Source: Verrucomicrobiota bacterium (GTDB taxonomy: Bacteria > Verrucomicrobiota > Verrucomicrobiia > Limisphaerales > UBA9464). Taken from it: a stretch of DNA of 64,000 bases. The notes under the pieces are model-generated. The model was given only the letters and a program-made list of their open reading frames with translations. It searched no databases and was not told the origin of the DNA. The DNA is taken from contig VHCG01000012.1 of NCBI GenBank assembly GCA_016871805.1, forward strand, positions 5,946 through 69,945, written 5' to 3'. Below are positions 53,027 through 59,414 of this stretch, in pieces (the stretch's first letter is position 1; each line of letters begins with the position of its first letter). Made by a program: the position numbers and the translations under genes.

Positions 53027-53557
53027 ATGAACCCTATCTTCTGGTTGTTTGGTCGTTCGGGTGCCGGCAAGACGACCTTGGCGAACTGTCTTCGGCAGGG
53101 TTTGCGGAATCGGGGTCTTGCTGTGTTCTTCATCGATGGCGATGAGGCCCGGGGCGGGCTGAGTTCAGATCTCGGGTTTGGGTCCGATGCCCGCACGGAA
53201 AACCATCGGCGGGTTGCCGAGGTGGCGCGCTTGGCGTCGAGGCAAGGCATTGTCCCAATCGTGGCCACCATGGCCCCGGAGCATGCGCAGCGAGATGTGG
53301 TGAGCCGTACCCTCGGAGAGCGCATCGTCTGGATCTTCGTGGACGCACCACTCGATGAGTGTCTGCGAAGGGATCCGAAGGGACTTTACCAGAGGGCCAA
53401 GGAGGGGCAGGTGAGGGGCTTTCTCGAATACCCGTTTGACGCCCCACGGCAGGACGAACGGGGTCTGACAATCCGCACGTGCGGTGTCGGGATTGAGGAG
53501 AGCTACCGTGAGTTGTTGCAGGAAGTCCTGGCCCGTTTGGCGGACTACAATCTCTAG
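53027..53557 (+). CDS. cysC: adenylyl-sulfate (APS) kinase
   Basis: FWLFGRSGAGKTTLA P-loop, FIDGDEARGGLSSDLGF, RTENHRRVAEVA and PKGLYQRAKEG. A good SD (aagggaggc) lies 6 nt upstream of the ATG. Confidence 0.9.
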   Translation: MNPIFWLFGRSGAGKTTLANCLRQGLRNRGLAVFFIDGDEARGGLSSDLGFGSDARTENHRRVAEVARLASRQGIVPIVATMAPEHAQRDVVSRTLGERIVWIFVDAPLDECLRRDPKGLYQRAKEGQVRGFLEYPFDAPRQDERGLTIRTCGVGIEESYRELLQEVLARLADYNL

Positions 53558-54833
53558 CCGGTTGCCTTGGAGAGGGCTGGAAGCCAACGCGGATGGTCGA
53601 TGCCGGTTCCGTCTGGATCCGCGACGATCTCTTGGGCGGCGCTGCCTTGGGAGGCTTGGATCCACAACGATGGCAGGCTCCCGGTGGCCGCTCGACAGAA
53701 GGTGATCCAGTGGCCGTCCTCCGACTCGCTGCAGCGGAAGTCCCAAACTCCCTCCGCGGGTTTTGTGACAGGCTCGGAGTCCCCGGTCCACGGGTCGATT
53801 CGAGCGATCGAGGTGCCTCCCTGGGCCGCGTCGGGTTGGAAACTACGGTTGAAATGATCCGTGTCCGGCCGGTTGGGTTGGAACGGCCACGGCACCTTCG
53901 ATCCGGGAATGCGTCGAGGGATCAGAAGTCGACTGTCGCGGGTCCAGGCGACCACGTTCGACCCGCCACCATGATGGCGGGCATTGCCGTAGGTGGCGGC
54001 GAACCACATCGCCTGCCCGGTGGTGAGGGCCCGGCTTTCCCGGCCGTCGGGACGCCCCACCCAGACGTCACACCAGTCGTGTCCCGGGTCCTTTTCCGGA
54101 AGGCAATCCGCGTAGGCCAGCCACTCGCCATCGGGGGACCACTGCGGACCAAAGAACAGATGCCCCGCATCGCCGGCCACCCGGATCCGATGCCCACCCC
54201 AAGGATCGCTGGTCCAGATCTCGTAGCCTCTGGGGCTGGCAAGGTGGAACGCGATGCGGCCCCCATCCGGGCTCGCCGAGAAGCCGTAGGGCAATCCCTC
54301 TCCCTCCCGCGTGAAAGGACGGGCATCCGACCCGTCGAGGTCCATGTTGTAGATCTGTCCGACCTTCCCCCGCACGACCTGAACGAGAAGCCGTCCATCT
54401 CGGAGCAGAAGCTGGGGGGTGTAGAAGACGGCGAGTCGATCCCGATGGGCAACCTCGACGAGATCCCCTGAATCCAGGTCAAAGGTCCACAGGTGGGTGG
54501 GGGTCTGGGTGTAGAATTCCTCGATGGTCGTCCGGGCCCGTCCCGACGCGGTTCCATGCTCAGAAGCAGGATCCGTCTGCCGTCAGGAAAGAATGCCGAG
54601 GGCTGCCAGGTAGCTTGATTTGGGACGTCGAAGGTGAGCGGACGTCGCCCCGTGCCGTCCGCACGGATCAGTTCGGTCCGTCCGCGCGTCACAAAGGCGA
54701 GTCGGGGTGGTTGTCGATCCGCCCAAGGGGTGTGTGCACAAGAGAAACCCAGGAAAATCGGGCCGGCGGCGAGGGCCCGGCTGAGGAAGTCACGACGGGA
54801 CAGTGGATCCTGGCCGGGGTGCAGGGAGGTCAT
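53554..54833 (-). pseudogene. Tat-signal TolB/PD40-like periplasmic beta-propeller, one frameshift
   Basis: N-terminal part: MTSLHPGQDPLSRRDFLSRALAAGPIFLG...FFPDGRRILLLSMEPRRDGPG. The sequence continues only in another frame (TTIEEFYTQTPTHLWTFDLDSGDLVEVAHRDRLAVFYTPQLLLRDGRLLVQVVRGKVGQIYNMDLDGSD...SPDGEWLAY...). The junction is near 54525-54545. Confidence 0.7.
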
Positions 54834-54903
54834 GACGGGAGCCTGCAGGGATCCCACGAGGCGGTCCATTTCAGCCTGCGGGCTTTCCGTGAGTCCAATC
54901 GGC

Positions 54904-56369: not shown

Positions 56370-57695
56370 TTAAGGCCTCCGATCTGGTCCTTGGTCAGCG
56401 CGGGTGGGAAGCCGTTCAACTGCCGCCAGATCTCGAACCAGAGCGGGACCTCCTGGAGCAGGACCCAGCTGTTGGCCCGGATCCCCTGGCGCAGCCATTG
56501 GCTCTCGGGCCAGTCCCGGATCTCCATCGCCTTGCCAGCCCGGGTCACGACGTCGGGCTTGGGTCCGACCAGGATCCGGAACTTTCCCTGACCGTTGTCG
56601 GTTGGATCCACGAGCATCACCTCTCCGCCGAAGGTGCCCACCGCGAGGCTGGGCCAGCCGATCAGCTGGAATGCGGGCCAGCCCCCGAATTGGAGTCGGA
56701 CCGGGCTGCCGTAGGAGATCACATTGCCCCGTTCATCCGAAACCCGGGCCTAGATCAGTGGCATGTCGTTGCCGCTCACGTAGAGCTCGATCCGGGGCTC
56801 GGAGGTCTGGGGAATCAGGGTGCAGAGCGGCGATCCGGCCCTGAGGAATGGACACTCGGTAGCCTGGAGGCGCATGATGCAGCCGTCGCGCGGGGCGAGC
56901 ACCTTTTATTTCTGGGTCTGGCTGACCTGGATCTCTAGGGAGATGGAGGCTTGGTCGGCCGAGGCGAAGTCCGCCTTGGCGCTGTCCCGCGAGGCCATGG
57001 CGGAGTTCATGGCTGGCCCGGAGGTCGATCTCGGTGCGGCGCAGCTCGATCTCGGAGCGGGCGAGGTCCGCGGCGGTGCGGTCCCGGTCCAACTGGGCCA
57101 GCTCGAAGTCCCGCTGGGAGGCGAGTCCACGCTGATCCTTGACGAGCGATTCGATCCGATGGAACTGCTGCGAGGCCGTCGCAGCGCTCACGCGGGCGAC
57201 GTCGAGGCGTGCACGGGCGGCCTCGATCCCCAGCGGCATCGCCCGTTCAAGCTCGGAGACCTGCCCGTTCAGGGCTTCGAGCCGTTCCTTTGCGGCATCC
57301 CGGCGCTGACGGGCCAGCTGGAGCTGCTGCTGTAGGTTGGCCAGCAGGTTCGGATCGTTGTCCGTCAGATCGAACAATAGGTCCCCCTGCCGTACGTACT
57401 GCCCCTCCATCACGTGGGATTTCTGAACCCTTCCGGCAAGGGGGGCCTCGATGGTTGTGGTTCGCTCCAACGGATTGTAGGCGATCACGCAACCTCCGCC
57501 CTGGACGAACTGCCGCCAGGGAAGAAAGGCGACCGCGACGATGCAGAGGATGAACAGGAAAGTGAGCGCCTTGCTCAGGAACCGGACGCGTCGGAGGGAA
57601 CTCGGGAGATCTAGCGCATGGAAACCCGCCCTGTCCGACAGAAACGGCATCGGATCGTCCACGCGGTGATGGGGGTCAAGCGCGGGGTCGCTCAT
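56366..57695 (-). pseudogene. HlyD-family periplasmic adaptor, one frameshift plus in-frame TAA and TAG
   Basis: N-terminal anchor and coiled coil up to ...RSEIELRRTEIDLRA, then a frame change near 57000-57040 into AMNSAMASRDSAKADFASADQASISLEIQVSQTQK. TAA (56906-56908) follows, then KVLAPRDGCIMRLQATE...ELYVSGNDMPLI. TAG (56750-56752) follows, then ARVSDERGNVISYGSPVRLQFGGWPAFQ...WRQLNGFPP. Confidence 0.8.
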
Positions 57696-59414
57696 GCGGT
57701 GGGGAGCTTGGGGGAAGGGGCCGGGATCCCGTGGACATCCCCCAGCCGAAGGACCTGGTCACAGCGCTGGATCAGGTCGGGATCCCAGGTCACCAGGATC
57801 AGGGTCCAGGGGTTGTTGGTCGCGAAGAGGAATGGAGCCAACTGCTCTACCGATGTGTTGTCGAGACCCTCGAGGCATTCGTCGAGCACCAGCAGGCGGG
57901 GGCGACCGACCATGGCCCGCGCCAGGACGAGACGGACCCGCTGGGTGCTCGTGAGCGGCCTTCCGCCCGCCACGAGGGGGGGTGTCGACGCCGGCGGGCC
58001 ATTGCAGGATCGCAGGCAGAAGACCCACCGCTTCCAGTGCGTCCCGAACCTCGGGCGGTCCGATGGCCGTCCGCCCCAGAGAGACGTTCTCCAGGATCGT
58101 CCCGCTGATGATCTCTGTGCCACGGACCAGCGCGACATCCTCCCGCAGGGCCTTCAGCGGCCAGTGTCGGAGATCCACCCCGTCCACCAGCAGCTCCCCC
58201 TGGTCGATGGGGCGAAGCGCGAACATCAGGTCGAGAAGGGTGCTGGATCCATAGCCGGCGGCGCTGACGATCGCCACCCTGGACCCTGCTGGGAACCGGA
58301 AGGAGAGGTTCGTGGAACAGCGGTGGGGCATCCGGGTAGCCGAACCCGAGGTGGCGTCCTTCCACCGCTGCAGGGCGTTCCCGCCTCACCTGTGCGGTCT
58401 GACGGGGTGGCTCGACCGGCAGGTCCACCAGTTGGCCCAGCTTGTCCGAGGACGCGAGGGCGTCATACCATGCTGCCAGTTGTTTGCTCGGCTTGGCGAT
58501 CGAGTCGAGGATGGCGGTCAGGATCAGCTGGCTGGCGACCAGCTGGCCGAGGGTCAGTTCCCCACGGAGGACCAGGAACGTTCCAAGGGTCAACATCGCT
58601 CCGCTGGCGACGGCCTGGAGGGTGAGCAGACCGATGATCTGTCGGAGGAGGATGCTGAATTGCGTTCACGCTTGAGGAGATAGTCCTGCGAGAGCGCGTC
58701 GGCCTTCCTGCAGGCGAACTCGGCTGCCCCGGTGCCCTTGAACAGGGTCGGGTAGCGGGCCAGCTGCTCCAGCCAGTCCACGACGGCGTGCTTGGCGTAG
58801 GACTTCTCGATGCTGGTCTTGACGCCGTTGTGCCCCAGAGGGCCCAGGATGGCCACCAGACACGCGATCTGGACCAGGGAGAAGGCCAGGAGATAGGGGT
58901 GGTAGAACGAAAGAACCAACAGGCCGATCACGGTCGACAGTGCCACATTAACACCTTCCAGCAGCAGCGTGGACGTGACCTTCTGCAGGGTGATCACCTC
59001 GAAGAATCGGCTGATCATCTCTGGTCCGAGCAACCGCTCGAAGTCCCCGGTCCTGCAGTGGGGAATCCTGTAGGACAGGTCCGCGGCCACACGCACGAAG
59101 AGCCGACGCTCGATCGTCTTCATGACGTAGGCCTGGGTTCCCCGCATCAGGGCGCTGACCCCAAGGAACATCCCCAGGGCGATGGCAATGATGATGAGGG
59201 CCTGGAGGTACACCTTCTGCTGGCCGCCGAAGGCGATGTTGTTGACCACGGCGTCCACAGCCATCGGCTGTGCGATGAGCAGCACGCCGTTCATCAGGGA
59301 GAACAGAAGCAGGACTTCGATGTCCCGGCGTTCCGGTCTGAGGATGCCAAAGAACCGTTGCCGAGGGGACGGATGGCGATGAGGTGGGGATCCCGGGTGG
59401 CAGTTGAGGTTCAT
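57692..59414 (-). pseudogene. ABC exporter (fused TMD-NBD), three frameshifts and degenerate ATPase motifs
   Basis: The TMD starts MNLNCHPGSPPHRHPSPRQRFFGILRPERRDIEVLLLFSL.... Frame changes occur near 58655-58666, near 58300-58335, and at a G7 run (57976-57982). The repaired NBD reads VAIVSAAGYGSSTLLDL ... GGRPLTSTQRVRLVLARA ... LLVLDE ... ILVTWD. Confidence 0.8.

Follow-up and report, generated by a model that had tools for sequence, protein, structure and literature searches.

The window analysed here is a 64,000-nt stretch of a Verrucomicrobiota bacterium (contig VHCG01000012.1 of assembly GCA_016871805.1, positions 5,946-69,945). The subject of this work is an export operon within it, in which the genes for an ABC exporter, a HlyD adaptor and a TolC channel, together with the beta-propeller gene that follows them, are all interrupted. 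Three-frame translation placed four consecutive gene remnants on the minus strand from 59414 to 53554, each of them in two to four reading-frame segments. The locus had earlier been described from its letters and open reading frames (ORFs) alone, hereafter the sequence-only reading, as a translationally coupled, type-I-secretion-like module of four genes in localized decay. The remnants, with the lengths of their conceptually repaired products, and the signals at their junctions are listed first; L001, L002 and L048 are intact relatives, introduced below.

57692..59414, minus strand: ABC exporter pseudogene with transmembrane domain (TMD) and nucleotide-binding domain (NBD); 573 aa repaired; four reading-frame segments; Pfam ABC_membrane and ABC_tran
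56366..57695, minus strand: HlyD-family periplasmic adaptor pseudogene; 442 aa repaired; fragments match HlyD_D23, HlyD_3 and Biotin_lipoyl_2
54904..56369, minus strand: TolC-family outer-membrane factor (OMF) pseudogene; 488 aa repaired; Pfam OEP in two stretches, 77-79 bits
53554..54869, minus strand: Tat-signal PD40/TolB-like beta-propeller pseudogene; 438 aa repaired; PD40 match
57692..57695, minus strand: ABC/HlyD ATGA stop/start overlap, conserved in L001, L002 and L048
56366..56369, minus strand: HlyD/TolC ATGA stop/start overlap, conserved in L001, L002 and L048
56376..56380, minus strand: GGAGG, a Shine-Dalgarno-like motif 6 nt upstream of the TolC ATG, read directly

Translational coupling, as judged from conserved stop/start overlaps, applies to the ABC/HlyD and HlyD/TolC junctions. 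It does not extend to the propeller, whose start (ATG at 54869 or 54833) lies 35 or 71 nt past the TolC stop; 54833 had been proposed earlier, and the start may be 54869 instead. No Shine-Dalgarno motif was found upstream of the HlyD start when the sequence was read directly, either in the window or in the relatives. The GGAGG ahead of TolC is conserved in L048 and L002 and is GGGGG in L001. The window propeller carries a directly readable twin-arginine motif, SRRDFL, and the pattern S-R-R-x-F-L is kept in L001 and L002. A promoter and terminator scan of 53000-60200 gave counts at chance level and was uninformative.

Nine lesions interrupt the four genes: six 1-bp frameshifts (three deletions and three insertions) and three changes from a glutamine codon to a stop. 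ABC and HlyD carry three lesions each, TolC two and the propeller one, and most of the six indels are at short repeated bases. All nine had been proposed in the sequence-only reading, and all nine were located by three-frame translation and ortholog alignments. They are listed here with their occurrence in the population contigs that are described in the next section.

58661..58663 (58662/58663), minus strand: ABC frameshift 1, 1-bp deletion, CGCC to CGC (CC to C), private against L048, L002 and L001; in 9 of 9 population contigs
58309..58310, minus strand: ABC frameshift 2, 1-bp insertion, A to AA; in 9 of 9 population contigs
57976..57982, minus strand: ABC frameshift 3, C7 homopolymer with one base extra; C7 in 8 of 9 population contigs
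57010, minus strand: HlyD frameshift, inserted A, GCC-TGA to GCCATGA; in 7 of 7 covering population contigs
56906..56908, minus strand: HlyD in-frame TAA, Gln CAG in four relatives, two substitutions; in 7 of 7 covering contigs
56750..56752, minus strand: HlyD in-frame TAG, Gln CAG/CAA in relatives (CAG to TAG)
56157..56159, minus strand: TolC in-frame TAG, Gln CAG/CAA in relatives (CAG to TAG)
56117..56118, minus strand: TolC frameshift, 1-bp deletion of G, GGCGCCCC to GGCCCCC
54524..54525, minus strand: propeller frameshift, 1-bp deletion, TT to T; in 6 of 6 covering population contigs

The first ABC frameshift leads to a stop at 58590, about 900 nt ahead of the HlyD start. The flanking genes asnB (622 aa), PMT/GT39 (573 aa) and the cysC-like gene (188 aa), which had been called intact, have the same lengths as in the relatives.

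Intact relatives and population contigs

With the TolC fragment as query, 36 loci were obtained from GTDB genomes, and a scan of metagenome contigs with the repaired HlyD yielded L046-L048 only, all from other lineages. Four relatives are syntenic with the window and keep all four frames open (573-574, 442, 488 and 438-455 aa), and their ATGA overlaps match those of the window:

L048, VFQT010000282.1: 91.3% nucleotide identity to the window
L002 (= L047), SYEM01000088.1 / SXGR01176647.1: 89.8% nucleotide identity
L001, JBDLQQ010000241.1: 84% nucleotide identity
L003, CAZZKQ010000126.1: about 89% nucleotide identity (3' part of HlyD, and TolC)

In three- and five-way DNA alignments with these four intact operons, all nine lesions are private to the window. 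Undoing the lesions gives proteins of 573, 442, 488 and 438 aa that are collinear with the orthologs, which bears out the earlier view that the genes were inactivated and that their boundaries were not simply mis-called. The repaired ABC, HlyD and TolC proteins are each 94% identical to those of L048, and the repaired propeller is 78% identical. The repaired proteins also match the expected Pfam profiles (ABC_tran, ABC_membrane, HlyD_3/HlyD_D23, OEP and PD40) as single uninterrupted stretches, and for each of these six main domains the repaired window proteins score slightly below L002. At the site of the C-run in ABC, L001 has C6, and the run is interrupted in L048 (CCCCTC) and L002 (CTCCG).

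The phylogeny is mosaic along the operon, with the window and L048 as sisters in ABC, and L048 and L002 as sisters in TolC and the propeller. The private synonymous divergence of the window is 0.03-0.04 in ABC and HlyD vs. 0.11-0.15 in TolC and the propeller. The change in tree, together with this step in divergence between HlyD and TolC, indicates past recombination near the HlyD/TolC boundary.

The metagenome scan with the repaired HlyD returned no locus from the window's own population. Population contigs were obtained instead by exact-protein look-up, with the flanking asnB and the 274-aa ABC fragment as queries, proteins that the look-up index places in 35-38 collection blocks; exact-product look-ups for two ORFs gave no match, probably from differing start-codon choices. 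Nine contigs were genotyped, from JGI (3300021093, 3300020204, 3300020109, 3300020074, 3300021092 and 3300020221), ENA (ERZ27247963) and Logan (SRR13013688 and SRR13013689), and the six JGI identifiers are Lake Tanganyika metagenomes (10.1101/834861). Population contigs are 99.96-100% identical to the window over 52000-62000. Each lesion they cover is present, the sole exception being contig L039, in which the C-run is C6 and two frames are locally rejoined. Eight lesions are thus found in every sampled contig that covers them, and the C-run is still segregating. Near the HlyD TAA, only the preceding codon differs in contig L037. Near-identical genomes, where the sequence-only reading would have taken uninterrupted frames as a sign of assembly error, therefore carry the lesions and vary only in the C-run. 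Intact frames were seen only in other lineages, which are 84-91% identical. Among the 15 of 21 members listed for the 90%-identity ABC cluster, there is no intact allele of the window lineage: full-length members are at most 94.4% identical to the repaired protein, and window-like members consist only of the 274-aa fragment.

On several population contigs, public gene callers also place a spurious 335-aa antisense ORF over the pseudogene region (57618-58625, plus strand) and a spurious 225-aa antisense ORF over the GT2 gene (51865-52542, minus strand). Both are annotation artefacts from high-GC shadow frames.

A sister lineage, L046 (about 90% nucleotide identity), has a segregating CAG to TAG change at ABC codon 313 (Q313*; L046 position 4216; proteins P0125 and P0127), where L047 has CAG. 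L046 and L047 differ at seven sites in 11.3 kb, Q313* being one of them, and HlyD, TolC and the propeller are intact in L046. The same split of ABC, into 312 + 223 aa, is also found on an ENA contig. Given Q313* in L046 and the ENA contig and the frameshifts in the window, the ABC gene has evidently been inactivated independently in two lineages. The L046 allele looks like the first step of the same decay path.

Selection on the operon and lesions elsewhere in the window

Selection was estimated by strict counts on the terminal branches of four taxa (window, L048, L002 and L001), with changes scored where the other three agree. Unrooted three-taxon counts were dropped, because the tree differs between parts of the operon and makes their "private" counts misleading. 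The ratio of non-synonymous (N) to synonymous (S) rates, omega, was as follows:

ABC: window 0.365 (15 N / 15 S); L048 0.058, L002 0.068
HlyD: window 0.18; L048 0.027, L002 0.024
ABC and HlyD pooled: window 0.276; L048 0.040, L002 0.047; Fisher P = 5.6e-6
TolC: window 0.056, not raised
Propeller: window 0.112, not raised
asnB (control): window 0.033

These counts show the signature of relaxed selection on ABC and HlyD along the window lineage. One private change of the window, R544W, falls on the H-loop Arg of ABC, which 107 of 120 family representatives share. Because omega is not raised in TolC and the propeller, these two genes probably died later than ABC and HlyD. Lengths of the neutral phase estimated from excess non-synonymous changes are about 0.011 substitutions per site for ABC, 0.006 for HlyD, 0.001 for TolC and 0.002 for the propeller. 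TolC has 7 private non-synonymous changes vs. 16.8 expected had it been neutral for as long as ABC (P = 0.006). Pooled over the genes, about 39 neutral substitutions would have occurred in 5.8 kb. Since stops are created by 2.8-5% of random substitutions, one or two nonsense changes are expected vs. three seen, and the six indels correspond to an indel-to-substitution ratio of about 0.15. The lesion numbers thus fit neutral decay, and no special mutational process is needed.

The decay had been called localized, and it is strongly concentrated at this locus: 9 of the 11 lesions of the window lie within 9.2% of its length (binomial P = 2e-8 under a uniform distribution). It is not confined to the operon, as mgtC and an Acyl_transf_3 gene are also broken. 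The other window genes, checked by a codon-usage hidden Markov model (HMM), gene calls and Pfam on near-identical contigs, are ordinary and full-length. The HMM was crude and took the low-GC acyltransferase region for "non-coding"; where it switched frame elsewhere, there was a real gene boundary.

In mgtC (7008-7484, plus strand), the internal TGA reported earlier was confirmed at 7293 (7293-7295), with the Pfam MgtC profile matching on both sides of it (profile positions 1-66 upstream and 71-120 downstream). A population contig has an identical truncated call of 95 aa. The Acyl_transf_3 gene (about 25821-26908, plus strand) is frameshifted at a T7 run (26029-26035) within a hotspot (26007-26035), where the Lake Tanganyika contigs have four indel haplotypes within 30 bp, none restoring the frame: T7; T6; T6 with an extra A; and T8 with a CA deletion, the last of which looks like a separate inactivation. 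In contig L057 (JGI 3300020204), a 1-bp deletion at window position 22043 splits a 1134-aa DUF748/AsmA-like gene (20382-23786, plus strand) into 630 + 502 aa and appears to be a segregating null allele; a contig of the same sample carries the C6 allele of ABC.

Three RNA elements were also noted. An Rfam nhaA-I match, a Na+-sensing riboswitch candidate (52794-52848, plus strand; 47.3 bits vs. a gathering score of 37), is located about 140 nt ahead of an APS-kinase-like gene (52991-53557); a gene of this kind is unusual downstream of nhaA-I. RNase P RNA class A (9448-9862, plus strand; 190 bits) and tRNA-Leu(TAA) (6717-6802, minus strand), the only tRNA in the window, are ordinary housekeeping RNAs.

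Course and causes of the decay

The alignments, contigs and substitution counts show lesions that are real, derived and common to the sampled contigs, with apparently relaxed selection on ABC and HlyD. On this evidence, a real and recent pseudogenisation of the whole export operon is very probable, in a wild Lake Tanganyika population of an uncultured freshwater member of the Verrucomicrobiota (Limisphaerales-like). Several observations weigh against this account or its details. Omega on the window branch is well below 1, and TolC and the propeller, whose pseudogene status comes from the lesions alone, show no rise whatever. The contigs are from one lake and are not fully independent species samples. 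Dating is rough, because the mosaic phylogeny gives the genes different branch lengths, and the order with ABC first depends on small counts.

The order of events, the polarity mechanism and a neutral rather than selected loss are all three what we infer from these data. An ordered cascade with polar silencing of HlyD has, in our view, about an even chance of being correct. The ancestor would have had a working three-part envelope exporter (a HlyB-like inner-membrane ABC, a HlyD adaptor and a TolC channel), with a periplasmic propeller encoded downstream. First, an inactivating change would have arisen in ABC. Second, the premature ABC stop would have silenced HlyD as well, but not the translation of TolC, through lost translational coupling, because HlyD starts at the ATGA overlap without a ribosome-binding site of its own. 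Third, TolC, with its own GGAGG, would have remained longer under constraint, and TolC and the propeller would have been inactivated later. Fourth, neutral drift would have led to a divergence of about 0.7% overall and about 1% in ABC, with six 1-bp indels and three C>T-type nonsense changes gained, the youngest lesion presumably being the change from C6 to C7. Such a polarity model fits the omega gradient, the lesion counts of 3, 3, 2 and 1 and the Q313* allele of the sister lineage.

Alternatively, the loss may have been favoured by selection, either as an evasion of phages or toxins that exploit the pump or TolC, or as a saving of the cost of a useless exporter. We regard this as unlikely, though the best of the rival explanations. 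It would account for independent ABC nulls in two lineages (three frameshifts in the window; Q313* in L046 and the ENA contig), for the eight lesions carried by every sampled contig that covers them, and for a second envelope gene, the acyltransferase, that has been inactivated independently at least twice in this population. However, the first changes were apparently in ABC and not in the surface-exposed TolC. One null suffices for such a benefit, which leaves the other eight lesions uninformative on selection, and the lesion numbers match the neutral expectation.

The genes could also be truly intact and the lesions due to sequencing or assembly, through homopolymer miscalls or a low-coverage patch. 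This could be suspected from the position of most of the six indels at short repeats and from the one C7 run that is C6 in one contig. It is very improbable, however, as the same nine lesions recur in nine contigs that cover different samples and three sources of assemblies, three of the lesions are base substitutions, the flanking genes are intact on the same contigs, and the window branch has an excess of non-synonymous changes.

Recoding, whether by programmed frameshifting, stop read-through or a code in which TAA and TAG specify Gln, would keep the genes expressed, and all three in-frame stops do replace Gln codons, as such a code would show. Gln is, however, simply the codon that yields TAA or TAG by C>T. 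Among the 29 intact genes of the window, 22 end in TGA, five in TAG and two in TAA, and the TolC, propeller and cysC-like frames stop with TAG where the orthologous frames do. Because TGA, TAG and TAA all terminate intact window genes, the genetic code is standard and reassignment is excluded, as had been argued before. Furthermore, the six frameshifts are of both signs and share no slippery motif, and the relatives require no recoding, so that expression by any of these routes is hardly credible. Equally hard to credit is a phase-variation switch in the C-run of ABC that turns the pump on and off, which would use the C6/C7 length polymorphism within the population: with two fixed upstream frameshifts in ABC and six downstream lesions the run cannot restore function, and runs are interrupted in relatives (L048 and L002).

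The exporter family and the meaning of its loss

The ABC-HlyD-TolC triad is conserved in 33-36 loci with 42-94% identity, mostly with Verrucomicrobiota labels and a few other metagenome-assembled genome labels. Among the 36+ loci, only L001-L003 and L048 have the propeller behind the triad. Of the four-gene module proposed earlier, the triad therefore stands, whereas the propeller, present only in the closest relatives after an uncoupled gap, is probably a lineage-specific neighbour, and a four-gene module is not established. All-versus-all ORF clustering of the 36 loci revealed no conserved cargo or partner gene beyond the triad. Small canonical ABC ATPases lie 4-5 kb from the triad in a few loci only, and source annotations of the relatives are generic (e.g., "peptidase domain-containing ABC transporter").

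The ABC of L002 has the domain architecture of an exporter, with ABC_tran at 56 bits (cut-off 25) and ABC_membrane at 27.6 bits (cut-off 28, marginal). Its HlyD scores 48.8 bits for HlyD_3 (cut-off 22.2) and 43.4 for HlyD_D23 (cut-off 30), and the repaired window protein scores 42.3 and 35.3. OEP matches in two stretches, at 91.9 bits in L002 and 79.3 in the repaired window (cut-off 22), and PD40 reaches 26-28 bits (27.7 in L002; cut-off 20.9). Full-length structure matches of the ABC include ABCB, TM288, Sav1866, PCAT1 and MsbA, with E down to 2e-52. A search of 1.84 billion representatives gave 150 best ABC-family clusters above 400 bits. Most of the best clusters are 700-790 aa long and extended at the N terminus (one of five extensions tested is weakly C39-like), and the focal clade is a short form without the extension.

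In its three components and their order (ABC, adaptor, OMF), the triad resembles the HlyB-HlyD-TolC type I secretion system (T1SS) of E. coli and the related LssB/PrtD; tolC is unlinked in E. coli. The best NCBIfam matches of the intact ortholog ABC are T1SS permease/ATPase models (LssB 177 bits, HlyB 152 bits), the adaptor matches HlyD_3 and HlyD_D23, and the channel matches OEP. Longer members of the ABC family have a weak C39-like N-terminal domain, as does HlyB, whereas the focal clade has none. However, all T1SS-specific models stay far below their cut-offs (LssB 177 vs. 693, HlyB 152 vs. 726, type_I_hlyD 52 vs. 209, type_I_sec_TolC 39 vs. 225), no RTX-type or other cargo gene is conserved beside the triad in the 36 loci, and the ATPase motifs of the triad ABC family are non-canonical. 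A Tat-exported propeller, moreover, would not be a T1SS cargo. The type-I-secretion likeness thus holds by homology and is a resemblance, not a demonstrated membership.

Bacteriocin exporters of the PCAT/NHLP type are likewise similar over the full-length TMD and NBD (PCAT1, PDB 4ry2, E = 3e-34), and the NHLM ABC models (TIGR03796/TIGR03797) score 157 bits, below their cut-offs. Unlike these exporters, the focal clade has no peptidase domain and no nearby precursor-peptide genes, and its ATPase motifs are non-canonical. The propeller resembles TolB/PD40 propellers in its PD40 match above the Pfam cut-off and its periplasmic export signal; it differs in scoring 23.7 against the TolB equivalog cut-off of 343, in having a Tat rather than a Sec signal, and in its lack of a Tol-Pal gene context.

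The ATPase motifs were surveyed in about 30 genomic homologs and the 120 nearest cluster representatives, the NBD being at window 57692-58400. The Walker A Lys is absent from all of these homologs and representatives; among the 120, the residue is A (75), G (25), S (8), T (7), V (4) or I (1). At the Q-loop position Arg is invariant (120 of 120), and no Gln aligns there. The ABC signature is LS/T-S-S/T-Q (LSSxQ), and the H-loop position has Arg in place of His in 107. The Walker B D-E pair is kept in 114. These representatives thus depart from the canonical set (GxxGxGK[ST], Q-loop Gln, LSGGQ and H-loop His). In the wider family (39-55% identity), the Lys is found in 118 of 151 members, the Walker B Glu in 51 and the H-loop His in 28. 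Intact ABC family members are under strong purifying selection, with omega about 0.05, and have no conserved partner ABC gene nearby. The non-canonical motifs are conserved family traits under purifying selection and do not belong to the decay. For degenerate motifs in ABC exporters of Verrucomicrobia, a literature search returned general reviews only.

Multi-lesion pseudogenes and decayed operons are familiar from niche-changing bacteria such as Mycobacterium leprae, Salmonella Typhi, Shigella and Yersinia pestis. The operon studied here is similar to them in having several frameshifts and nonsense changes in adjacent genes of one unit, intact flanks, apparently relaxed selection on ABC and HlyD, and indels mostly at short repeats. 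It differs in belonging to a free-living planktonic lake bacterium that is known only from metagenomes, and in a decay that can be traced across population contigs and a single-lesion sister allele. The decay is a new instance of a well-known phenomenon and not a new kind of system.

As such, it is a tidy natural case of operon decay in a free-living planktonic bacterium, in which intact relatives polarise the lesions. A first hit upstream, polar silencing of the coupled gene and later loss of an independently translated gene form a sequence of events that is rarely visible in wild populations. For annotation, the locus matters as a cluster of broken genes in metagenome-derived sequence that reflects real biology and not assembly noise, where public gene calls give meaningless fragments and shadow ORFs such as the 335-aa antisense call. 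As to the large, mostly verrucomicrobial triad family, we think it rather doubtful, but worth stating, that it may be a tripartite exporter with unconventional energy coupling or with a scaffold role for its ABC. This would hold if the ABC subunit truly lacks ATP hydrolysis of the usual kind, and the repeated loss in deep-lake lineages (nine lesions in one, a segregating Q313* in the other) would then mark a conditionally dispensable envelope function.

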